64,000 nucleotides of DNA from an uncultured Parachlamydiaceae bacterium (GTDB taxonomy: Bacteria > Chlamydiota > Chlamydiia > Chlamydiales > Parachlamydiaceae): contig CAVVXH010000006.1 of the NCBI GenBank assembly GCA_963752155.1, positions 1 to 64,000 of the forward strand, in the 5' to 3' direction. This document shows, piece by piece, positions 4,966 through 54,150 of this stretch. The notes beneath the pieces were generated by a model. It made no database searches, was not told the origin of the DNA, and worked only from the letters and a program-made list of their open reading frames with translations. Made by a program: the position numbers and the translations under genes. Within the stretch, counting starts at the first letter, position 1. Each line of letters opens with the position of its first letter.

Positions 4966-5415
4966 AACGATGCAAACGATACAACGATAAGAACGATGAA
5001 AACGATAAGAACGATAAGAACGATAAGAACGATAAAACGATAAAAATTTGTGGAATACTCGGGTCGTCACAGTTTTCTTAAAGATTTCTAGACTAGTCGA
5101 AAAGTCCGCATTGCTTTGCAGTCTTTTCCATTCCAATTTCCTATGCCGGAAATTTACTAACAACCGAAAAACAACAGTTCAGAATGGCGCCCGTCAATTC
5201 ATGATGAGGTAGTTTCTTGTCTTCTTCCATCGTTCTTATCGTTCTTATCGTTCTTATCGTTCCTATCGTTCTTATCGTTTCTATCGTTCTTATCGTTTCT
5301 ATCGTTCCTATCGTTCTTATCGTTCTTATCGTTTCTATCGTTCCTATCGTTCTTATCGTTCCTATCGTTCTTATCGTTCCTATCGTTCTTATCGTTCCTA
5401 TCGTTCTTATCGTTT
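4966..5415. repeat. Inverted pair of 9-bp tandem arrays: (AACGATAAG)x~9 and (ATCGTTCTT/CCT/TCT)x~21
   Basis: Left array 4966-5043 and right array 5229-5415 are reverse complements, separated by about 185 bp of unique sequence. Confidence 0.9.
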
Positions 5416-5609
5416 ATACCGTTGATCTACAGTAGAAACAGAACGTGTCAAGCTCTACTATACTAGGTATTCTTTTTCCCTGCTTCTTCCTAGCAGTCCA
5501 ATTTTCGCCAATGGCATACGTATAAGGAGAATCTTTTCCATTGCTTACTCTAACAGAGTGTTTTTAATTTTCAATGAGAAGCAAATTCTAGTCTAGGGAT
5601 GAACCGACT

Positions 5610-5860: not shown

Positions 5861-10143
<4,283 letters not shown>

Positions 10144-10150
10144 CTAATTA

Positions 10151-13915
<3,765 letters not shown>

Positions 13916-14078
13916 CCTGAAAGACTCCCTGATATAGCTATATATGAACAAGATTCTATAAATAAGTTTAGATCTACGTCATAAAAGCATAAAGCTAAGA
14001 TGATCAAAAATGATTCAATTTAACGCAATTAGAATGCACTCTTGACCAATCACCTGGTTGAACCATGAGACTATAAGA

Positions 14079-14468
14079 TTAAAGTCCTTTAAGAGTGACT
14101 TTACCGCCAGCATTTTCAAGTTTTTTCTTAATGTCTTCAGCTTCAGCTTTAGGACATGTTTCTTTGAATACTTTAGGAGCAGCCATCGACAAGATCTTTA
14201 GCTTCTTTTAAGCCAAGACCTGTGATTTCGCGAACGACCTTAATGACGCCGATTTTTTTATCAGCAGGAACTTCCGTCAATGTGACTTGGAATTCAGTAG
14301 ACTTCAGCAGCAGCTGCAGCGGGACCAGCAGCAGGAGCTGCGGCAAAGACAGCGAGCAGCAGCAGCTTTAACACCCCACTTTTCTTCCAATAGTTTTTTT
14401 AGCTCAGCCATTTCTAAAACTGTTAATTTGCTGAGCTCTTCAACGAGTTGTTCAGTTTTGTTACTCAC
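14079..14468 (-). CDS. rplL: 50S ribosomal protein L7/L12 (frameshifted)
   Basis: GTG start, [33 protein letters not shown], Ala-rich hinge, [21 protein letters not shown], ends [10 protein letters not shown]. Confidence 0.95.
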
Positions 14469-14507
14469 GGTATTACCTCTTTAATTTTCTAAAATTTGTT
14501 AAAAGAA

Positions 14508-15058
14508 TTATTCTTCATTGTTATCGCTTGGGGCATTTTGATCTGTCGCCCCTTGCATTTATTTTCAAGCAATAAATAACACTTGTCAGAAGAGCATCGA
14601 CAACAGCCAATGTTTGCAGCCATCGGAGCTTCAAATAAGCCGAGCAGTTGAGCTCGCATTTCATCTTTGCCTGGTAGCTGGGATAGCGTTCCACATCTTC
14701 AGCACTGATAAACTTGCCCTTCAAAACGTCCACCCGACGATTTCAATGGCCTTTTCGTTCTCTTGACAAACTTATAGACAGATTTTGTAATTTCTGCAGG
14801 ATCATTCTTTGCAAAGACAAGTCCGATATGTCCATCTAAGATTCAATGGATCAAGATCAATTCCAGCGGCTTCAGCTGCTTTGACGCAAAATACGTTTGC
14901 GCATCACTTCTACATCGCCCCCCAGGGCAGCAATTTGACGGCGAAACTCTCCAGCTTTATTTGCCTTTAAGCCCAAGTATCGCATAATGACAAAAGATGC
15001 AAAATGCCTTAATTTGCTCTTTAATTTCATCTAAAAGGAGTTGTTTTTCTTCTCTCAT
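14508..15058 (-). CDS. rplJ: 50S ribosomal protein L10 (frameshifted)
   Basis: [14 protein letters not shown] start; position between rplA and rplL. Confidence 0.9.
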
Positions 15059-15073
15059 GATTCAACTGCCTCC

Positions 15074-15775
15074 TTACGCTACTATCAAGTTCGCGAAGAT
15101 CAATTTTAAGACCAGGACCCATTGTTGAAGAAAGGACCAAGGATTTCAAATATTGCCCTTTAGCGGAGGCAGGCTTTGCCGTATGAACAGCATTAAGAAA
15201 GGCTCGAATATTTTCCACAAGCTTTTCATCATCAAATGAAAGCTTCCCTACGGCATTATTGATCACGCCATGGCGATCGAGTTTAAATTCGATTTTACCA
15301 CCTTTAAGCTCTTGAATAGCTTTCGCAATATCTGTTGTGACAGTTCCTGCTTTAGGAGTTGGCATCAGTCCGCGAGGTCCTAGAACTTTACCCAATTTAC
15401 CGACATCGCGCATCATGTCGGGTGTGGCAATGACAGCATCAAAGTCTGTCCAACCCCCGTTAACTTTTTCGAATAAGTTCTTCATTGCCCGCATAATCGG
15501 CACCAGCAGCTAAGGCTTCTTTCACCTTATCACCTTTTGCGAAAACGAGAATTCTCATTGTTTTTCCTGTTCCATTCGGTAATGATACAGTTCCGCGAAC
15601 GTTTTGGTCGGATCTGCGAGGGTCAACGCCCAGTTTTAAAGAAACTTCCACCGACTGATCAAATTTGACCGGCGGACATTTCTTTAAAATAGCGATAGCT
15701 TCTTTAACGCTATAGTCTTTATGCGCATCTAGCATTCTTGGCTATCTCCCGAATTCTTTTACTTGGACGACCCAT
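15074..15775 (-). CDS. rplA: 50S ribosomal protein L1 (frameshifted)
   Basis: [58 protein letters not shown]. Confidence 0.97.
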
Positions 15776-15792
15776 AATTGTTATTTCTTTAC

Positions 15793-16215
15793 TCAGTTAA
15801 CTGAGTTCAATTCCCATGGATCGTGCTGTTCCCAGAACGATATTAGTGGCAGCTTCAAGATCTGTTGCATTAATATCTTGCATTTTTTCTTCTGCAATTT
15901 TACTTGCTTGACTCGTGTGATTTTGCCGACTTTATCGCGGTTAGGAACAGCGGATCCTTTCGCAATCCCAGTGCTTTTTTCAGCATTTCGGCAACAGGGG
16001 GTTTTTTGCATATAAATGTAAATGATTTATCTGATAAACAGTGATCACAACAGGAAGAATATCTCCCGCCATCGCTTGTGTTTTGGCATTAAATTCTTTA
16101 CAGAACGCCATAATATTGACGCCTGCTGCACCAAGGCTGGTCCAATTGGCGGCGCTGGGTTGGCTTTTCCTGCAGGAATTTGCAACTTAATAAATTTAAC
16201 AATTTTTTTTGCCAT
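15793..16215 (-). CDS. rplK: 50S ribosomal protein L11 (frameshifted)
   Basis: [42 protein letters not shown]. Confidence 0.95.
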
Positions 16216-16267
16216 TTTCCATATTCTCCTCAAATTGCTCTAGACTTATCAGTCTTAGATCTTAAAA

Positions 16268-16818
16268 TTATACAGATGTCTTTTCTTCTGTAATTTCTTC
16301 GACTTGGCTAAATTCGAGATCATCGACACGGGTATCTCGTCCAAAAATCGAAACCAATACACTAAAGCGTCCTTTATCATGGAATACTTCAGTAACTGTT
16401 CCGATAAAGTTAACAAAGACTCCATCGATAATTTTGACGCGATCGCCGACTTCAAATTTATGTTTTTGGTGACTTTTTCTTTTTTATCTTCGAGATCTCT
16501 GAGAATTTCATCGACTTCTCTTCTGAGATAACGGTGTTGGTTTATCTCCGCCCAGAAAATCAATGACTCCAGCTGTATTCTTGACATATACCCACGATTC
16601 ATCATTCAGATTCATTTAACTAGGAGATATCCAGGCCACAAACGTTTTTCAACAATATTTTGCTGTCCTTTTTTCACTTCTGAAACATTTTCGATAGGCA
16701 AAAGGACATCTGTCAATAAAATCGGTCATCCCTTTTAGTTCGCGTTGTTCTTCGATGGCTTTTTTAACTTTTTTTTCGTGAGTCGGACAACGACTTGCAC
16801 AACATACCACTTATGCAT
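16268..16818 (-). CDS. nusG: Transcription termination/antitermination factor NusG (frameshifted)
   Basis: MHKWYVVQV start, EKRLWPGYLL, KOW region, VSIFGRDTRVDDLEFSQVEE. Confidence 0.92.
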
Positions 16819-16867
16819 TATTTCTCCGCATTAGCACTCTTAAATCAGATATAAACTTATATCTGCT

Positions 16868-17122
16868 TAATCAAAAACAAAACGAACACACTCCCAAGTG
16901 AGATGCAATAGCACTCTGAATAGCTAAATCCACACAATAAATGCCTATTCCAAAAACAAATGTCGCTCCTACGACAATCTTTGTATAGAACTTAAGTTCT
17001 TCTTGGCTAGTCCAATTGATTTTCTTAAATTCATCCTTAATATCTTCCAACAAATTCGAACAGTGTCCTAACTGTCTTACTGAGTTTCGCTTTCAGCGAG
17101 GACTGGTTTTCTTTACTTCCAT
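16868..17122 (-). CDS. secE: Preprotein translocase SecE (frameshifted)
   Basis: IKDEFKKINWTSQEEL plus TM segment; lies between tRNA-Trp and nusG. Confidence 0.9.
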
Positions 17123-17209
17123 AACTTTCTATACTTCCACTGTCTTGATCTTGCCATCTACACATCTTTGACGTCTTTATCAGGAACTTCAAATGGTAAT
17201 CGCTTACAA

Positions 17210-17282
17210 CGAGTGCGGAGGGATTCGAACCCCCGACCGGCGGCTTTGGAGACCGCTGCTCTACCAGCTGAGCTACACACCC
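17210..17282 (-). tRNA. tRNA-Trp (CCA)
   Basis: GGGTGTGTAGCTCAGCTGGTAGAGCAGCGGTCTCCAAAGCCGCCGGTCGGGGGTTCGAATCCCTCCGCACTCG cloverleaf; 3' CCA not encoded. Confidence 0.97.
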
Positions 17283-17378
17283 ATTAATACGATACACTTG
17301 AACTCATTTCTGATTCAAAGACATAGCAATCTGTTACAAAGATCTGCAATGCTTATCCTGAGTACTCACTGCTATTCA

Positions 17379-18566
17379 TTACTTAATGATTTCGGAAACA
17401 GTTCCGGCACCGATAGTACGGCCACCTTCACGGATCGCAAAACGCATCCCTTTTTCCATAGCAACAGGAGCAATCAAGTTCAACAGTGATTTCAACGTTA
17501 TCGCCAGGCATCACCATCTCAACACCTGCTGGCAAGTTCAACTGTTCCAGTAACGTCTGTTGTACTGAAGTAGAGCTGAGGACGGTATCCGGTGAAGAAA
17601 GGCTTATGACGTCCGCCTTCTTCTTTTGTCAAAACGTAAACAGGGCCTTTAAATTCGGTGTGTGGAGTGCAGGTTCCTGGAGCAGCAAGAACCATTCCGC
17701 GTTCAACATCTGTCTTTTTCAACACCGCGTAGAAGAATACCGACGTTTTCCCCTGCACGAGCTTCATCAGAGTTTTATTAAACATTTCAAGACCAGTCGC
17801 AACTGTATCTCGTGTATGGTCCAAGACCAACGAGTTGGAGTTTATCGTTGATTTTAACGATTCCGCGCTCAACACGTCCTGTGGCTACAGTTCCACGGCC
17901 GGAAATGGAGAACACGTCTTCAATTGGCATTAGGAAAGGCTTATCAACTTCACGTGCAGGAGTTGGAATCTTTTCATCGACTGTTTTCATCAGTTGTTTG
18001 ATGCTTCAACATACTTAGGATCGCCTTCAAGAGCTTTCAAAGCAGAACCTCTGATGATCGGCACATCTTTGTAGCCTTTAGATTCGAGCAGTTCATGCAG
18101 TTCCATTTCAACGAGGTCAAGAAGTTCTTGATCGCTTTCGCCAAGCATATCGACTTTGTTGAGGAACACGACGATAGCAGGCACTTGCATCTGGCGAGCA
18201 AGCAAGATGTGTTCGCGTGTTTGAGGCATAGCACCATCTGTTGCAGCAACAACGAGAATAGCGCCGTCCATCTGAGCAGCACCTGTGATCATGTTTTTGA
18301 CATAGTCGGCGTGGCCTGGGCAGTCGACGTGTGCATAGTGACGTGTTGTCTGTTTCATATTCAACGTGAGTTGAGTTGATCGTAATCCCGCGTGCTTTTT
18401 CTTCAGGTGTATTGTCGATAGAGGCATAATCTCTGAATTTTGCTCCGCCTGTTTCTGCAAGAACTTTAGTGATTGCTGCAGTCAGTGTCGTTTTACCATG
18501 GTCAACGTGACCGATGGTTCCGATGTTGACGTGTGGCTTTTTCCGCTGAAATGTTTCTTTTGCCAT
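17379..18566 (-). CDS. tuf: Elongation factor Tu (multiple apparent frameshifts)
   Basis: [61 protein letters not shown]. Confidence 0.98.
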
Positions 18567-19208: not shown

Positions 19209-20281
19209 AAAATTAAAACGAATTTTTGAAAATTAATTCGTGCCCGTGTACAACAAAACCTTGCCATTTCTTCCTCCCCATTTCCGAATCCAAATATGTG
19301 ACTTCTAATTAAGTATGCACCCCTGATTATAACATCCAAATACTTTTTGGAGCCCTCAGCGACCAGCGGCGCGCTAATATCAAGAAGTAAACTCAAAAGC
19401 TTACGCAGAAGTGCTGTGGCTCTGCCCATCCTATTACCCATAAGTTTTTTTCTTACGCTAGGATAAAGTTACGTAGGCTTTATCCATCGATATAGCCCTA
19501 ACACAACATTATTTTTTTAACGCAAAGCGAGACAGTTGCCTACGGCGCCCCCTATTGGGAAATAACAAATTTTTAAAGCGCCTTGCCATTGGTGCCTGAC
19601 CTGATATTCTGACATTTGCCTACAATGATAACGTAACCTCCCAGGAGGGCAAATGTCAGAATGTCAGGTCTGGAACCAAGGCTAAACGTTACCTCTCAGA
19701 ATTTAGTATCTTGTTATTAATTGAAAACGATGCTTTTTTCAGTTGCGTAAATCTTGGGGGTAACGTTTCAGCCTTGGTTCCAGACCTGACATTCTGACAT
19801 TTGCCCTTTAGGAATCAATGTTATCGCATCGGCAAATGTCAGAATATCAGGTCAGGCACCAATGGCAAGGCGCGAACTTGTTATTTAGGAGAAACAAAAG
19901 GCCCATATGACTTATGGGTAATAGGATGGCTCTGCCACAGCGCGTTAAGAAGGTTTAATCATAAAGTATGCAATTAAAAATTATAGGATGTTGTCTCGCT
20001 TTATGCAGGCCTCCTACTCGTAGCTTCATTCAGACCATAAATGTATGTCAGTAACGGATTTGTAAAACAACAAAACCCTTGCCAACTGAAAGGGAAAAAA
20101 TTTTTTAATTGCATGCTTTATGATCTAAACCTTCTTCACGCGCTGTGGCAAAGCCACAGCACTCCAAAAAGTATTTGGATGTTATAATCAGGGATGCATA
20201 CTTAATTTGAAGTCACGTATTTTGGATTTGGAAATGGGGGGGAGGAAGAAGTCGCAAAGTTTCGGTTAGCGGGAATTGCTG
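19209..20281. repeat. Nested composite of palindromic elements
   Basis: Outer inverted repeat of about 95 bp (19256-19352 and 20163-20263). Inner inverted repeat CCATCCTATTACCCATAAGT (about 19426-19445 and 19910-19929). Twin family-A hairpins at 19580-19683 and 19771-19871. Solo family-C end at 20266-20281. Confidence 0.85.
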
Positions 20282-24846: not shown

Positions 24847-26843
<1,997 letters not shown>

Positions 26844-26856
26844 TCCTATACCAGAT

Positions 26857-26888
26857 AACGAGCTCCGGATGGAGCTCGTTGTTCTTTA
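26857..26888. terminator. Terminator after groEL
   Basis: AACGAGCTCC-GGAT-GGAGCTCGTT hairpin. Confidence 0.75.
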
Positions 26889-26894
26889 AAGTAC

Positions 26895-27860
26895 TTAAAC
26901 AGTGGTATTTTTCCAGAAAGCCTTAATTTCTTTTTCAGAACGGCCTGTAATCTCACAGATCTGAGAAATTGTAAAACCTAACCTAAGACAATTATTAACT
27001 GTTTCACTGAATTCTTTTTCAATTCCTAATTTCTCGCCCTTTTTGATCCCTAGTTTTTCTCCTTTTTTAATTCCTAGCTTCTCTCCTTTTTTAATTCCTA
27101 GTTTCTCTCCTTTTTTAATTCCTAGTTTCTCTCCCTCATCTAATTTTTGAGCCATAGCGGCAAAGTATGCTCCCCTATATTTCTCAGCTTGATCATAAGT
27201 TCGCATCTCTTCTTCACTCCAAGAAAATCGATCTAATTCATCAAAAGCACGTTCAATAATTTGGTCCTGACCAATGATCTGATTTAAATCTTTTGGGAAT
27301 GTATCCTCTGCATGTTTAAAAAAATAGGCCCATTTATCAGTCATGCTTTCAAGTTCATGAATTTTCTTGTTAAATTTTGAGAGTTCTAAAAACGTAAAGG
27401 AAAAGTCTTTTAGATCATTTTCATGAGTGTGCTTGTCTAATATAACATGATCTGATTTATACGCTTTTTTATTGGGAAACATTGTAAAGTCGGCAATAGC
27501 GAAAAAAATAATTTCTTTAAGTTCATGATATACTGCCCCTACAGGAGCCTGTGCGACATACGCCTTAGAAGCATAATATTGTGCTCTTTTTTCAAATCCC
27601 TTTTCTTGAGCGACTTGCATTTCCACAATATAATAATTACCAACTTGATCTTTACATAAAATGTCTACAATGCTGCTCTTCAAAACTGCTATGTCGGGAT
27701 CTTGAATGGTTTTCAAAAAAGTTACATCAACGATGGGTTGATGCTCTTTAAAGATAAGCATATCATTCAAGAAATGAATCAGAATATCTTTATTTTTTTC
27801 TGTGCCAAAAATTTTTTTAAAAGCTACATCATTTTTTGGATCAAGAAACTTCGATATCAT
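26895..27860 (-). CDS. Rpn family recombination-promoting nuclease (PD-(D/E)XK nuclease family transposase-like)
   Basis: LDPKNDVAFKKIFG, VDILCKD...IVEMQ, RAQYY; C-terminal GEKLGIKK repeats. Confidence 0.92.
   Translation of the reverse strand: MISKFLDPKNDVAFKKIFGTEKNKDILIHFLNDMLIFKEHQPIVDVTFLKTIQDPDIAVLKSSIVDILCKDQVGNYYIVEMQVAQEKGFEKRAQYYASKAYVAQAPVGAVYHELKEIIFFAIADFTMFPNKKAYKSDHVILDKHTHENDLKDFSFTFLELSKFNKKIHELESMTDKWAYFFKHAEDTFPKDLNQIIGQDQIIERAFDELDRFSWSEEEMRTYDQAEKYRGAYFAAMAQKLDEGEKLGIKKGEKLGIKKGEKLGIKKGEKLGIKKGEKLGIEKEFSETVNNCLRLGFTISQICEITGRSEKEIKAFWKNTTV
27020..27136 (-). repeat. 24-bp coding tandem repeat x5 (GEKLGIKK)
   Basis: Visible in the DNA and in the Rpn translation. Confidence 0.9.
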
Positions 27861-27964
27861 AGCTCATTAACCTCTATTTTTTCTTAAAACTCTTCCATAG
27901 TTTTATCTAACTTATAAGGATTTAAATCTAGATATTTATATTTTAACGTATCAAAATTGTCAAG

Positions 27965-28750
27965 TCAATGAAAAAAATCCATATCTACAACAGGAACTTG
28001 CTTTAACTTATGGGGGCGCAGTAAATCTTCCATTTCTCTACGAGCTCCCTTAAACACTGCTGACCAACTCACTTCCCCTCTTTCCCCCTCCACAACTTTT
28101 TTTAAACTTCTAAGAAAAGAACGCGTATAAAAACTTCCTTTCACAGTGCAATAGGAAGGTTGACCCGCACTGGCACTTACTACTGCAATTATCCCCTTAG
28201 TTTTAAAAAACAGAGTGTTATAGTTTTTCTTTTTAGATGTCGAAATCGTCAATTCAGGAAGTTGACCTTTTATAACAGGGGGAGCCCGTTGGGAAATTTT
28301 CCAGTTACAGCAATCTGCAAATATAATTGATAACCCCGCTCTTTTCTTTCGTATTTCTTCAATAATTTCTTTAAAATCTAAACCACAATTTTCAAGAGGA
28401 AAATCAAGATTCGGCCATGGACTCCCTTCATTTAACGAAGTTCTATACCCATGACCTGAAAAGTAAAATAGAAGAATATCATCTTTTTGTGCCTTTAAAC
28501 TTTTAATTGTCTTTAATACATCATGAGCAATGGATTTTGCTTTGTTAAAAAGTCGAACTTTTAAATTGTATTTTCCGATTTCCACTATCGTTTGAATTTC
28601 CCTCTCTATCATCTGAAGATCCGTTTTGGTGGCTCGAGAAATATCCTCAGAATAGCTATCTGCCACCAGAATAGCATGGAAATCTCTTGCACTTAAAGGA
28701 GTACACAACGAACAAAACTGCATGACGCAATAAAATAAAAAAAATCGCAC
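27965..28750 (-). CDS. Caspase-family (peptidase C14) protein with signal peptide
   Basis: FYFSGHG and IFADCCN His/Cys dyad, SASAGQPS, GSFYT; GGAGG RBS before GTG 28750. Confidence 0.85.
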   Translation of the reverse strand: MRFFLFYCVMQFCSLCTPLSARDFHAILVADSYSEDISRATKTDLQMIEREIQTIVEIGKYNLKVRLFNKAKSIAHDVLKTIKSLKAQKDDILLFYFSGHGYRTSLNEGSPWPNLDFPLENCGLDFKEIIEEIRKKRAGLSIIFADCCNWKISQRAPPVIKGQLPELTISTSKKKNYNTLFFKTKGIIAVVSASAGQPSYCTVKGSFYTRSFLRSLKKVVEGERGEVSWSAVFKGARREMEDLLRPHKLKQVPVVDMDFFH

Positions 28751-28816
28751 ATGGCCTCCTTTTTCAGTCGAATTTGTTAAGATATTATGCAATAATAAGA
28801 TCAAAAAGGTTCACTT

Positions 28817-32127: not shown

Positions 32128-32372
32128 ATGAAATTAGAACGATTTAACCAAGAGGCTCCAATCTTGAAAATAGCCTTGCCATTGGTGCCTGACCTGATAT
32201 TCTGATATTTGCCTAAGTGAAAACAAGACCTCTTAAAAGGGCAAATGTCAGAATGTCAGGTCAGGCACCAATGGCAAGGCTATTTTCAAGCACGCACACG
32301 GGCACGAAATAATTTTCAAAAAATCGTTCTAATTTCACTGCTCAAATGCCCGTATGTTTAGCAAAATTGCTG
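32128..32372. repeat. Family-A palindrome nested in a second inverted repeat
   Basis: TGAAATTAGAACGATTT and AAATCGTTCTAATTTCA flank CTTGAAAATAGCCTTGCC...GGCAAGGCTATTTTCAAG (32163-32290); degenerate family-C end at 32358-32372. Confidence 0.85.
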
Positions 32373-43985: not shown

Positions 43986-44070
43986 CAGCAATCAGCCTGC
44001 TCAATTGCGTGGATATGGTGACCTATTTCGAATGCGCTGGCAAGCCTGCAAGCCATAACATCCAAAAAAT

Positions 44071-44292
44071 TTTTGGAGTGCGCGTGGCTTTGCCACCGCA
44101 GAACGCAGCCTCTATACGAGTCATGCCGGTAGACGTTGCCTCCATTAACTCATACTATCATTGTTACAATTTGAATTCTCCTTTGTTGTAGTGGTTTAGA
44201 AAACTAGCTTGAGTTCTATCGAGGCTACGTCTACCGGCATGACTCGTATAGAGGCTACGTTCTGCGGTGGCAAAGCCACGCGCACTCCAAAA
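44071..44292. repeat. Palindromic element family B (222 bp)
   Basis: TTTTGGAGTGCGCGTGGCTTTGCCACCGCAGAACGCAGCCTCTATACGAGTCATGCCGGTAGACG arm plus inverse; conserved loop. Confidence 0.95.
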
Positions 44293-44638
44293 ATTTTTTG
44301 GATGTTATGATCAAAGGTGCATACTTAATTAGAAATCACATATTTTGGATCCGGAAATGAGGGAAGAAATGACAAAGGTTTGGTCGAAAAACGTCGTTTC
44401 GTCAGACCTGATATTCTGACATTGCCCTTTCGAGAGGTCTTGTTTTCGTTTAGGCAAATAGATGTACCCGTATAAGATTGAGGAAAAAATGCATGAAATT
44501 ATTTTGATCAAAAAATATTGCAATTCAAGCTTTTGTTGGAAGAATTTATTAAAATATAAGAAAGTACCAGAATTAATGGGATCCAAAATATGTGACTTCT
44601 AATTAAGTATGCACCTTTGATCATAACATCCAAAAAAT

Positions 44639-44860
44639 TTTTGGAGTGCACGTGGCTTTGCCACCGCAGGACGGAGCCTCTATACGAGTCATGCCGGTAG
44701 ACGTTGCCTCCATTAACTCATACTATCGTTGTTACAATTTGAATTTTCCTTTGTTGTAGCGGTTTAGAAAACTTGCTTGAGTTCTATCGAGGCTACGTCT
44801 GCCGGCATGACTCGTATAGAGGCTGCGTTCTGCGGTGGCAAAGCCACGCGCACTCCAAAA
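44639..44860. repeat. Palindromic element family B
   Basis: Near-identical to 44071-44292 including the loop. Confidence 0.95.
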
Positions 44861-44948
44861 AATTTTAGCAGAATAATAAATATCGATTGTCAAGAGAAAC
44901 AAAATTTGTTAAACTTAAAATCTCACCCTCACCTTAGGTATTCGTTAT

Positions 44949-50344: not shown

Positions 50345-50808
50345 TGCCTTGCCATTGGTGCCTGGCCTGGTGAGAAACAACGTTTTTGACCAAAACCTTT
50401 GTCATTTCTTCCCCTCATTTCCGATGGGATCCCAAATATGTGACTTCTAATTAAAATTTTTGGAGTGCGCGTGGCTTTGCCACCGCAGAGCGCAGCCTCT
50501 ATACGAGTCATGCCGGTAGACATTGCCTCCATTAATTCATACTATCGTTGTTATAATTTGAATTCTCCTTTGTTGTAGCAGTTTAGAAAACTTGCTTGAG
50601 TTCTATCGAGGCTACGTCTTCCGGCATGACTCGTATAGAGGCTGCGTTCTGCGGTGGCAAAGCCACGCGCACTCCAAAAATTTTTTGGATGTTATGATCA
50701 AAGATGCATACTTTAATTAGAAGTCACATATTTTGGATCTGGAAATGAGGGGAAGAAATGACAAAGGTTTTGGTCGAAAAACGTCGTTTCGTTTCTCCCC
50801 ATGCCTGT
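50345..50808. repeat. Family-B palindrome (50458-50679) nested in family-D inverted repeat, with family-A end fragments
   Basis: GACCAAAACCTTTGTCATTTCTTCCCCTCATTTCC...ATATGTGACTTCTAATTAA on the left and its inverse on the right. Confidence 0.88.
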
Positions 50809-50894
50809 GTTCATTTTTTAGTTTTTCGACTAAGGTTTTTACTCCGGCTAAAACAAAAGCTGAAAGATACATATCAGCAGATTCTTGAATCTGG

Positions 50895-51268
50895 CTCCTA
50901 AATAACAAGTTCGCGCCTTGCCATTGGTGCCTGACCTGATATTCTGACATTTGCCGATGCGATAACATTGCTTCCTAAAGGGCAAATGTCAGAATATCAG
51001 GTCTGGAACCAAGGCTGGAACGTTACCCCCAAGATTTACGCAACTGAAAAAAGCGTCGTTTTCAATTAATAACAAGATACTAAATTCTGAGAGGTAACGT
51101 TTAGCCTTGGTTCCAGACCTGACATTCTGACATTTGCCCTCCTGGGAGGTTACGTTATCATTGTAGGCAAATGTCAGAATATCAGGTCAGGCACCAATGG
51201 CAAGGCGCTTTAAAAATCTGTTATTTCCCGATAGGGGGGCGCCGCAGGCAACTGTCTCGCTTAGCGTG
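50895..51268. repeat. Twin family-A composite (about 370 bp), inverted copy of 19520-19891
   Basis: Hairpins at 50915-51015 and 51104-51206; spacer and flanks match the reverse complement of 19520-19891. Confidence 0.92.
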
Positions 51269-51304: not shown

Positions 51305-51463
51305 CACATCCATTTTTGATAGCGATTATTTAACGTTTCAGCTGTTTTGTAAACAGCCCTATCAACCATTTTTGTCTTTTACTACGATTATCACATCCTC
51401 CTAAAATAACATATAAGGAAGACATTAAAAATAAGAGCCCAAAACCTATCATTTTTTTCATTG
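51305..51463 (-). pseudogene. Truncated third copy of the immunity lipoprotein gene
   Basis: MKKMIGFGLLFLMSSLYVILGGCDNRSKKTKMVDRAVYKTAETLNNRYQKWM*. Confidence 0.8.
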
Positions 51464-51526
51464 TTCTGTTCCACATTTTTTGGGAATAAGGTTAAAATTA
51501 TTACCAAAAAGGTTTAGTTTGTTGCG

Positions 51527-52078
51527 TTATTCCTTATTTAGCTCTCGTGATTGTACAATTTTCAAAGCATCTTCATAGCTTTCTTCTTCAGTATAAAATT
51601 TATATTCTAAACGCATTTCCGGAGAAGTTGTAGAATAGCTAAGAAGTCCTCTTTGAAGCGATAAAACACAAAAATCCGGATGATAAGGAATTCTTCCGTC
51701 TGGGTGGCGAACATAGATGGTTATTTCAATATTTTTCACGGTAAAAGGGGAGGGTTTTAAGTAAGGGAGTAATTGAGGATTGGAATTTATTTCTTTTAAC
51801 AGTTCTTCAGCGCAATTAACTATTATTTCTCGACCTTCTTCTTTACTAATGATTCGAAATAATTCAAAATGCAATCCTACTTCTTTATAATAATTTTCGC
51901 CTCCGGCTTCAGAAATGCCAACATAACGTATTTGAAAGCGATTATTTAATGTTTCAGCTGTTTTGTAAACAGCCCTATGAACCATTTTTGCCTTTTCGCT
52001 ACGTTTATCACATCCTCCTAAAGCAATAAATAAGAAAAACATTAAAAACAATAATCCAAAACCTATCATTTTTTTCAT
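51527..52078 (-). CDS. Putative immunity lipoprotein, copy 2
   Basis: MKKMIGFGLLFLMFFLFIALGG-C lipobox; near-duplicate of copy 1. Confidence 0.8.
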   Translation of the reverse strand: MKKMIGFGLLFLMFFLFIALGGCDKRSEKAKMVHRAVYKTAETLNNRFQIRYVGISEAGGENYYKEVGLHFELFRIISKEEGREIIVNCAEELLKEINSNPQLLPYLKPSPFTVKNIEITIYVRHPDGRIPYHPDFCVLSLQRGLLSYSTTSPEMRLEYKFYTEEESYEDALKIVQSRELNKE

Positions 52079-52174
52079 TGTGCTGTTCCACATTTTTAGG
52101 GAATAAGGTTAAAATTTTTCCAAAAAGGCCTGATTAGTTGCCTCATTCCTTATTAAGCTGCGATTGTACAATTT

Positions 52175-52693
52175 TCAAAGCATCTTCATAGTTTTCTTTT
52201 CTTCAGTATAAAATCCAGGTTTATAAAGCATTTCCGGTGCATCAGTAGAATATCTAATGATTCCACCTCTAAGCGATAAAATTCCAAGATCCGGATGGTA
52301 AACAATTTTTCCGTTTGGGTGGCGAACATAGATGGCTATTTCAATATTTTTCACGGTAAAAGGGGAGGGTTTTAAGTAAGGAAGTAATTGCGGATTGGAA
52401 TTTATTTCATTTAACAATTCTTCAGCGCAATCAACTATTATTTCTCGACCTTCTTCTATACTCGTAATTCGATGTAGTTCAAAAAACATTCCTACTTCTT
52501 TATAATAATTTTCGTCTGCGGCTTCAGAAATGCCGATATAACGTATTTGAAAGCGATTATTTAATGTTTCAGCTGTTTTGTAAACAGCCCTATGAACCAT
52601 TTTTGCCTTTTCGCTACGTTTATCACATCCTCCTAAAGCAATAAATAAGAAAAACATTAAAAACAATAATCCAAAACCTATCATTTTTTTCAT
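52175..52693 (-). CDS. Putative cognate immunity lipoprotein, copy 1 (possible 3' frameshift)
   Basis: ATGA overlap with the toxin stop; LGGC lipobox. Confidence 0.8.
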   Translation of the reverse strand: MKKMIGFGLLFLMFFLFIALGGCDKRSEKAKMVHRAVYKTAETLNNRFQIRYIGISEAADENYYKEVGMFFELHRITSIEEGREIIVDCAEELLNEINSNPQLLPYLKPSPFTVKNIEIAIYVRHPNGKIVYHPDLGILSLRGGIIRYSTDAPEMLYKPGFYTEEKKTMKML

Positions 52694-53706
52694 TGTGCTG
52701 CCCCATAAGTTTGGAAAAAAGCTTCTAAGCTGTCTTTTACTGGCTGTTTGTATGTTGGGCTATCGTTAAAGTGATCAAACCAGGAGGCGTTTTCGTGAGG
52801 AGATAACATTACCACAGGGGCTCGATTCTCGATGGCAGCGAAATCCAATGTCGCTATTTTTAAAAATTTATCGAATAAGGGAACAAAATCACGGTAGCTT
52901 TCATAATGGATAGCTTTTCCAAAATCAGTTTCTTGGACGTGAGCTCCGGGTGCAACTGCAATCACATCGATCTTTTCCATCAATTCTTTGTCGTAAGAAG
53001 GAATAGTGTTCCTGGTATGAATCATTCCCTGGCTATGCCCTAAATGTAAAATGCGACGATCATTTTTTGCAAAACATTCATTCCAGTTCTCTTTTAATAA
53101 CTTGGAAGGAGTTGTCTCTACTCCTAAAAGATTAAGAGCGCATTCTACTACATCAAAGCCAATGCCATAGCTTGCATTATGTACTCCTATTACTTCACGT
53201 CCCCCAGCCATATCTGAATACATTTCTGCCGCGGCCATAGAATCTTTCTTGGAGTTTCCAACTCCATTAATAAATGTCATGCTTAGGCCATCATTTCGGG
53301 GAGAGCCTATTTTGTATTTCGTTGAGTAATAAAAATAGTTGGGCGCTTCAAATGCATCCCATTCGACTCCTCCGTATTCCATAATGTTACTTGTTAAAAT
53401 GCTATTGGCTATATTTTCGTAGTTGTCTCCTATGAGTTCAGACAGCCATCTCCCATCTGGATCAAGGTACTTCATGGGCCTATTTTGGACAAAAGAGTAG
53501 ACATTTGGTCCATCGATGAATCTAAGTGGATCTGGAGTAATCCATTTACCAATCTCAGGGTCATAATATCTTCTGCCAAAAAATACTAATCCAGTTTCAG
53601 GATCAATTCTTTTGCTGCTAAATCCCCAGTGACAAAATGCTGTATTACGCTTGTTGCCAAAGTTATCGAAAATTTGCTTTTCTTCATATGCTGTATACCG
53701 ATAGCA
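52690..53706 (-). pseudogene. Orphan Rhs core plus alpha/beta-hydrolase (GHSQG) toxin tip
   Basis: In frame upstream of ORF 53475: YRYTAY...WGFSSKRIDPETGLVFFGRRYYDPEIGKWITPDP...NRPMKYLDPDG; tip FINGVGN, GHSQG, RDFVP, DH. Confidence 0.85.
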
Positions 53707-53757: not shown

Positions 53758-54150
53758 ATATTCTGACATTTGCCTTTTAGGAAGCAATGTTATCGCTTCG
53801 GCAAATGTCAGAATATCAGGTCAGGCATGGGGAGAAAACGAAACGACGTTTTGCGACCATTTCTTCCCCCATTTCCGGATCCAAAATATGTGACTTCTAA
53901 TTAAAATTTTTGGAGTGCGCGTGGCTTTGCCACCGCAGAACGCAGCCTCTATACGAGTCATGCCGGTAGACATTGCCTCCATTAACTCATACTATCGTTG
54001 TTACAATTTGAATTCTCCTTTGTTGTAGCGGTTTAGAAAACTTGCTTGAGTTCTATCGAGGCTACGTCTGCCGGCATAACTCGTATAGAGGCTCCGTTCT
54101 GCGGTGGCAAAGCCACACGCACTCCAAAAATTTTTTTGATGTTATGATCA
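53758..54150. repeat. Partial family A, family D arm and family B (53908-54129) composite
   Basis: Same modules and junction (GTCAGGCA|TGGGGAGAAA) as the inverse of the 50790-50808 end. Confidence 0.88.

Follow-up and report, generated by a model that had tools for sequence, protein, structure and literature searches.

A 1-kb chlamydial palindrome is a stack of at least six unrelated selfish elements

Mosaics of the BIME and NIME type are built of alternating units of one family. Other repeats are tied to Y1 HUH genes. In the TIRYT/TIRtron, TnpA-REP subclass 2.1 and REP/REPIN-RAYT systems a single-copy gene carries its own flanking repeats, which also exist in many gene-less copies, and subclass 2.1 is described as having moderate families or no REP-like repeats (PMC3733652, PMC6006769, PMC5581495). 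The TnpA-REP of E. coli is described as cutting at C|T (PMC8266576). Repeated palindromes can also be targets: ISRm22, of the IS4 family, inserts in REP elements of Sinorhizobium, and the duplication made by IS50 is about 9 bp (PMC1525189). IS621 and ISPpu9/MITEPpu9 represent the IS110-family bridge-RNA recombinases, MITEPpu9 being the MITE-like IS110 derivative on record (PMC11208160, PMC12288879). The Ssn system consists of a small nuclease gene flanked by its own NTS/SRM hairpin repeats, which also occur without the gene (PMC11893778). Every ingredient of the locus described here has a known counterpart, namely Y1-linked REP/TIR repeats, palindrome-homing IS4 and IS110 elements, an IS110 MITE and a hairpin-flanked nuclease; no description of such nests in chlamydiae was found in the open-access literature.

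The window, that is the whole stretch of 64,000 nucleotides that was analysed, corresponds to positions 1-64000 of contig C6 in the source assembly (G000; 3.13 Mb, 38% GC, 80% complete). Judged by the labels of public genomes with the same E end (see below), it would belong to the environmental chlamydiae. A preliminary description, made from the letters of the DNA, had reported about 1 kb of concentric inverted repeats at 19209-20281, and a repeat search bore this out. The nest sits between infA and the neighbouring gene, the two genes being divergent. The outer D arm pair was recovered at 19267-19352/20162-20247 (86 nt, 84% ungapped identity; 97-101 nt at 89% by BLAST) with the ends TTTTGGAG/CTCCAAAA, and the inner pair proved to be perfect over 20 nt (19426-19445/19910-19929). 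The twin A hairpins are likewise real and are enclosed by a perfect 43-nt pair (19578-19620/19831-19873), and the repeat search revealed a second B hairpin at 19927-20156. Both J and C ends had been placed at the edges; this holds for C, in the form of fragments belonging to two C subtypes, but J lies inside, at 19512-19527 and 19892-19905. The features of the nest and of the related loci in the window are the following.

19209..19248, + strand: C-type left fragment, a GTGCCC-hexamer arm (60 exact core copies)
19254..19343, + strand: D left arm, lineage-specific (36 matches in G000, 0/30 relatives)
19344..19426, + strand: B-family left part, the TTTTGGAG end and the first half of a small B palindrome split by E
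19419..19426, + strand: left copy of the 8-bp target duplication GCTCTGCC (right copy 19929-19936)
19427..19928, unstranded: E, assigned as an IS4-family (IS50-like) MITE, with 19-bp terminal inverted repeats (ends equal to those of a 1504-bp IS)
19512..19527, + strand: left piece of a GxxExxY-type (J'') arm, ending in the putative IS110 target ACGCAAAG (resumes at 19892-19905)
19528..19891, + strand: W, assigned as a 364-bp non-autonomous IS110-family derivative with A hairpins (ends equal to those of an 1818-bp IS110 in genome G218)
19578..19873, unstranded: A, twin hairpins of a repeat family with a putative TIRYT/subclass 2.1 link (same arms flank a Y1 gene)
19929..20169, unstranded: B-family hairpin with a 168-nt loop, ends CTCCAAAA (loop module in 20 copies)
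20170..20262, - strand: D right arm (repeat search, BLAST)
20266..20281, - strand: C-type outer end, a fragment (arm library)
32176..32277, unstranded: single A hairpin beside a C-type arm (module search)
44055..44861, unstranded: B/D composite and A fragment (B, D and A modules at 44068-44861)
50895..51259, - strand: second copy of W with A hairpins, W(A), after ACGCTAAG in otherwise unique DNA (344 nt, 98% identity to the focal copy)
53758..54150, unstranded: A fragment joined to a B hairpin (A and B modules at 53800-54132)

The modules recur, in differing combinations, at the four other loci that had been named (32128-32372, 44055-44860, 50345-51268 and 53758-54150); the locus at 50349-51261 holds A, B and D modules together with an entire W(A) copy. 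Over the whole genome the repeats form 671 islands, which together span about 208 kb of the 3.13 Mb. Annotation with a set of 32 arm modules gave 682 loci, of which 74 combine at least three module families. Exact copies numbered 173 for the A core, 137 for the B end and 27 for the D core. Only 7 of 895 arm matches fell in ORFs of at least 200 aa.

Folded as DNA, 19209-20281 reached -318 kcal/mol (z about -26); thirty dinucleotide shuffles gave -120 +/- 8 and did not go below -135. So stable a fold, lying between divergent genes, would be in keeping with a nest retained for a host function, either as a structured RNA or as a barrier separating the infA promoter from the divergent promoter downstream. 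Such a function is considered highly improbable: the nest is not conserved at the same place in two congeners, no Rfam family reached threshold inside it (only weak miRNA-type hairpin matches below threshold were obtained), and all of its parts are explained as mobile-element ends.

When W (19528-19891) was removed in silico, the resulting junction was matched at 98-99% by two other E copies; the empty J'' form without W is present at C2:295411-295534 and C17:121295-121412, again with 98-99% across the junction. Removal of E (19427-19928) together with one GCTCTGCC left a 503-bp D-B-B-D element whose junction is spanned by five paralogues (79-95%). Since empty paralogues extend across both junctions, E and W are insertions into elements which also exist empty. 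No orthologous empty allele was found in the two congeners examined (G001 and G002), because synteny breaks after infA. Contigs from three DNA sequencing runs cover mostly repeats; one of them skips 510 bp (E plus 8), and as it probably represents a paralogous locus it was not counted as an empty allele. The nest is a stack of at least six unrelated selfish elements, one inside another. As in BIME and NIME, different palindromic repeats are joined in intergenic DNA into a mosaic to which IS elements are drawn (PMC3184786); the nest differs from these by its concentric build, its six or more families and its three or more enzyme classes.

The ends of E equal those of a 1504-bp insertion sequence at a public locus (L196) with Tnp_DNA_bind and Tn5-dimer domains (PF14706, E-value 7.5e-22; PF02281 weak and below cut-off), the gene of which is frameshifted. 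In the source assembly, the copy at C5:20394 retains the beginning of the transposase, at the offset seen in L196 and with 59% amino acid identity; an intact IS50-type transposase was not found in this 80% complete assembly. Judged from these ends, E is a MITE from an IS4-family (IS50-like) DDE insertion sequence. Its target duplication measures 8 bp at the focal locus and 9 bp at C17, C2 and C12. Among the public matches listed, 38 E pairs included 8 with exact 8-bp and 2 with exact 9-bp duplications, many others being imperfect; many flanks are inverted copies. Homopolymer loss was considered as the source of the 8-bp duplication and dropped, 8 bp being common among the public pairs. At many E copies the flanks are mirror images rather than direct repeats, which suggests that one arm was copied onto the other after insertion.

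Of the 19 E-end matches in the source assembly, 15 lie directly against a B, D or C repeat; both orientations are represented, and the B arms involved differ. The other four, with three mismatches each, are probably not true ends. A pattern scan of public genomes gave at least 161 E ends. Among the matches listed, 41 were located at B-type and 67 at C-type repeats (108/161) and 53 were unclassified; taken as distinct flanks among the matches listed, 102 of 154 abut B or C, against 0.27% of background positions. By genome, E abuts B or C in 21 of 29 (74/106 distinct flanks, 80 loci among the matches listed), and in G015, G010 and G012, each of which has a B variant of its own, the register of the E end is unchanged. 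These junctions demonstrate an apparent targeting of E insertion to fixed points of B- and C-type repeats. E is like ISRm22 in its IS4-family affiliation, its single position in a repeated palindrome and its short duplication. It is unlike ISRm22 in occurring mostly as MITEs, in its duplication of 8-9 bp, in using two unrelated target families (B and C) and in its presence in many chlamydial genomes. Octamer arms were found just inside 10 of 106 E ends (5 genomes, among the matches listed), compared with about 1% of random windows.

Two further associations were observed around these palindromes. An IS1182-like element (family assigned by eye; a similar protein was scanned) lies in the same B palindrome at C4:63423-65116, and in a public contig (L159) an IS1182-like transposase lies inside an E MITE, forming a composite of 1962 bp.

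Strict W(A) copies in the source assembly numbered 42, a set which leaves out loose composites such as C21:105490 that were judged not to be true copies. All 42 follow AAG and 32 follow ACGCAAAG; the hosts were J arms (24), J' arms (7), J'' arms (2), another hairpin (2) and sites elsewhere (7). Fifteen copies are full-size and 92-99% identical to the focal one. The AG core stands at 19526-27 and again at 19890-91, and W has no target duplication; an apparent 3-nt repeat is seen at 8 copies, but the hosts of these have AAG AAG even when empty. An empty paralogue was available for 35 of 48 loosely defined W copies, and at C11:311868 the W site can be seen uninterrupted in the other arm of the host hairpin. 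As read from these junctions, W has a fixed insertion point and makes no duplication. Insertion of the modules at defined positions within one another had been proposed in the preliminary description, and the fixed junctions confirm it for E and W.

The left end of W is present in 8 of 40 relatives and, at the loci inspected, bounds a different cargo while keeping its position in the arm. In a metagenome contig it is followed by about 270 nt of non-coding DNA and then by the start of a DEDD gene. Genome G218 contains five full copies of 1818 bp with both W ends, all in octamer arms, encoding a protein of 463 aa with matches above cut-off to PF01548 and PF02371 (DEDD_Tnp_IS110 and Transposase_20). 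The right 12 bases of these elements are identical to those of W, and the left end is alike and has the same subterminal motif. On the evidence of its ends, W is an IS110-family MITE. A single RAYT/HUH enzyme, cutting C|T as does E. coli TnpA-REP (PMC8266576), might instead have moved all modules and built the nest, and the lower-strand CT and missing duplication at W junctions, as well as two intact RAYT genes in the source assembly, agree with it. W ends, however, flank neither RAYT gene and are the ends of full IS110 elements, W holds non-A cargo in relatives, and E has IS4 ends and duplications; one enzyme for the whole nest is very unlikely, and for E and W this reading is largely refuted. 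RAYT cleavage at C|T was also dropped as the cause of the A-in-J junction, since the ends belong to IS110. With W taken as an IS110 MITE, the presence of A inside 88 of 107 W left ends would mean that W captured the A hairpins once and then spread them as cargo, and much of the spread of A is likely IS110-driven.

In the non-coding region of the full-length relatives, a 9-mer, the putative target guide, agrees with the final 7 bases of the target and follows a G/A switch of the target in six of six genomes (CGCAGAG in L319 and G218; CACAGAG in G224, G118, G264 and G005); L327 was left out of this count as a chance match. A putative donor guide, also a 9-mer, agrees with the right end at 8 of 9 positions in G218 and G264 and at 7 of 9 in G224. 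A left region with target and donor guides in this layout is that of bridge RNAs as described in PMC11208160. The covariation of guide and target, which comes from six kin genomes with perhaps two independent switches and does not amount to a statistical test, is suggestive; the single-sequence fold of the G218 region had a z of -1.9, and the two-loop structure canonical for bridge RNAs was not seen in it. In G264, a GxxExxY gene has one of the IS110 copies in its upstream arm, and GxxExxY genes occur in all five checked genomes which hold such IS110 elements.

Neither the IS110 gene (tblastn included) nor a bridge-RNA remnant was found in the source assembly, which is 80% complete, and the guide region is absent from W. 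The congener G001 has only decayed IS110 pieces with no W ends nearby, and the IS110 protein gave no clear match in four of the five W-bearing relatives searched. The target in the source assembly, CGCAAAG, is one base off the guides seen (CGCAGAG, CACAGAG). It is likely that an RNA-guided recombinase of the IS110 family steered W to the repeat arms of the uncharacterised nuclease gene GxxExxY; the mobility of W, a circular intermediate and RNA-guided recombination are predicted. The resemblance to IS621 and ISPpu9 comprises a protein with DEDD and Transposase_20 domains, a long left non-coding end, guide-like 9-mers for target and donor, a 2-nt core at both ends, the lack of duplication and insertion into a repeated palindrome. 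The W clade differs in that its target is the octamer arm of GxxExxY cassettes and not a GTAG REP, and that the core is AG on the gene strand; in W itself both the gene and the guide region are gone, and 42 copies bear foreign hairpins as cargo. The main texts of the open-access literature gave nothing on an IS110 clade aimed at GxxExxY arms, although the supplementary target tables of PMC11208160 could include it. The IS110 link to these arms is a new, testable lead.

The elements had been described as non-autonomous, which is supported. Candidate enzymes, encoded beside the same arms by two RAYT-like genes, by GxxExxY genes and by a four-helix-bundle gene, were located outside the window. 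The pairing of arms with enzymes is drawn from adjacency, and activity is presumed. The earlier statement that the window holds no cognate mobilising enzyme stands, though a PD-(D/E)XK Rpn gene is present at 26895-27860, because no library arm adjoins that gene (none within 26000-28800). Rpn (PDDEXK_2) genes were rejected as mobilisers: the window copy and a copy at C7:34915 have no arms beside them, and the other two copies have arms within about 1 kb which do not flank the gene. The window copy has a 24-bp tandem repeat near its 3' end. Searches for GIY-YIG and DUF559 gave one gene each.

A arms were found on both sides of a gene for a 341-aa Y1/HUH protein (C10:596682-597707). This protein has the HUH and Y...NP motifs NHIH and YIHLNP, a match of 52 bits to Y1_Tnp (PF01797), and a DnaA-like tail, with a weak DnaA match at 224-326; it scored under the NCBIfam REP_Tyr_transpos cut-off (71.7 vs 80 bits). 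The long protein, the DnaA-like tail and the flanking inverted repeats would fit subclass 2.1.2/TIRYT. Related arms with nearly the same core flank homologues of the enzyme in G012 and G029. B arms are arranged in tandem directly upstream of a 201-aa RAYT gene (C11:40745-41350), in the source assembly on one side only, and the product scored above cut-off (NF047646, 98 bits). B-like arms also lie beside RAYT homologues in G007, G012 and G015, in the last case on both sides; three other short RAYT loci inspected have unrelated arms. A and B agree with the TIRYT/TIRtron, subclass 2.1 and REPIN-RAYT systems in the single-copy Y1 HUH gene, its own flanking repeats and the many gene-less copies. 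They differ in lacking a GTAG tag (no GTAG foot was seen in A or B arm sequences read by eye) and, for A, in about 170 copies and in arms without exact GGGGWSAS, a motif absent from the A arms of the source assembly and present in arms of the homologues L044 and L046.

The GxxExxY gene at C6:157 kb is bracketed by J-type octamer arms, and another one, on C10, by arrays of 9-mers. An arm test was applied to 27 GxxExxY loci (3 from the source assembly) out of 151 matches; inverted arms beat all 100 block shuffles at 18 of these, nearly did so at 1 and did not at 8. The model here is Ssn, with which these cassettes share a nuclease gene with its own hairpins and gene-less copies. They are unlike Ssn in that the protein, a predicted nuclease known here from sequence, is PD-(D/E)XK-like and not GIY-YIG, and that the arms consist of 8- or 9-base tandem units. 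At 4 of the 10 loci inspected in relatives, four-helix-bundle TIGR02436 genes stand between C-type hexamer arms; a C-linked gene of this kind was not found in the source assembly by tblastn with two of the relatives' proteins as queries. The main texts of the open-access literature yielded nothing on GxxExxY or four-helix-bundle arms. For D there was no match in 30 relatives and no enzyme was found.

Within the window, inverted arrays of 9-base units surround a deleted GxxExxY remnant at 4983-5423, and more than 10 such derivatives exist in the source assembly, in which one intact cassette with these arrays was seen (C10:276680-277126). Genome G029 has 67 GxxExxY matches in 1.9 Mb, many of them near-identical full copies and many identical C-terminal fragments; this looks like a recent expansion of the cassette. 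At C1:43094-43820 of the source assembly (L015), a four-helix-bundle protein with a C-terminal extension and one in-frame stop is accompanied by inverted 9-mer arrays (family F), and similar genes of relatives have their own GGAC-type arrays.

One REPIN-like system with a hierarchy of insertions had been envisaged; the evidence supports neither a single system nor a strict hierarchy. Only A and B are RAYT-linked, E being by its ends an IS4 (DDE) MITE and the wrapper of A an IS110 MITE. The nesting is partly cyclic: D/B can lie within A, or elsewhere within J and H, and there are loci at which B is the host of E, J, W and A. The order C-like, E, J, W recurs in the independent contig L319; the succession, in which B or C is outermost and E, J and W follow inwards, results from the two targeting rules and the J cargo of E.

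Loci with at least two families numbered 200, against a null mean of 151 (max 172); those with at least three numbered 45, against 29 (max 47), which is within the null range. Families share loci about 1.3-1.9 times as often as in the random null, and this enrichment by mere co-location is modest. It can be cited for a random pile-up in limited intergenic space, in which the fixed junctions are old insertions copied as composites or by gene conversion, as can junctions that look co-amplified: MITE G, which occupies one site of the A loop in about 17 copies, and A in W (88/107). Both of these look like single events copied many times. The same register of E in B variants of different genera, its B or C flanks in 21/29 genomes among the matches listed, the one register of W in several host types and in unique DNA, and the covariation of guide and target refute a lack of targeting for E and W, while it is still adequate for the D-B, A-in-W and G-in-A junctions; for the nest as a whole it is unlikely. 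MITE G (e.g. C1:107149-107307 in the source assembly), which is presumably of the IS5 type, has GGGACTGTGCAA ends and a TWA target; its other copies are free.

With targeting accepted for E and W, it is quite probable that the nest is a stack of unrelated non-autonomous elements, likely formed by successive targeted insertions, each with a different, predicted, trans-acting enzyme. From the nesting we infer the following order. A B-family palindrome (RAYT-linked) with D arms would have been the start. E, an IS4-type MITE that already bore a gene-less GxxExxY-type arm, would then have inserted in the small B palindrome by cut-and-paste with an 8-9 bp duplication. An IS110 recombinase, its bridge RNA pairing with the GxxExxY-type arm, would have inserted W at the AG core without duplication, and W would have carried A hairpins captured earlier as cargo. 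The composites would have been further copied as units, and the long hairpin would be a by-product of stacked palindromes for which a host function is not needed.

A wider reading is possible and is put forward tentatively: the selfish hairpins of environmental chlamydiae may form a conserved food web. The cassettes with GxxExxY and four-helix-bundle genes would then be a hitherto undescribed class of self-spreading elements, on which two ordinary IS families have specialised: an IS4 lineage would live on RAYT- and four-helix-bundle-linked repeats, and an IS110 bridge RNA would track GxxExxY arms and ferry arbitrary cargo in trans with ends of about 45 + 13 bases. If this is true, the nest is a natural read-out of targeting rules and a ready mini-donor for a new AG-core bridge recombinase. 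Resolved into its layers, a baffling 1-kb palindrome becomes a set of testable enzyme-target pairs. The IS110 clade would offer a natural guide-target covariation series and a natural cargo-bearing mini-element, W bearing on the minimum size of a bridge-recombinase donor and on mobilisation in trans. As the fixed target of a putatively RNA-guided element in several genera, GxxExxY arms would be an old, stable repeat class and could offer a lead on what a large, uncharacterised protein family does. Caution is indicated in that a high REPIN-like copy number, as in family A, may reflect hitch-hiking in another element and not a RAYT.

Elsewhere in the window, three tandem copies of about 615 bp at 51315-52741 encode paralogous proteins of 170-190 aa with no Pfam match. 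At 5861-18566, rpoC, rpoB and tuf are each split into several ORFs, a 149-aa piece of tuf comprising only the first part of the GTP-binding domain; the splitting suggests uncorrected assembly indels and not real pseudogenes.
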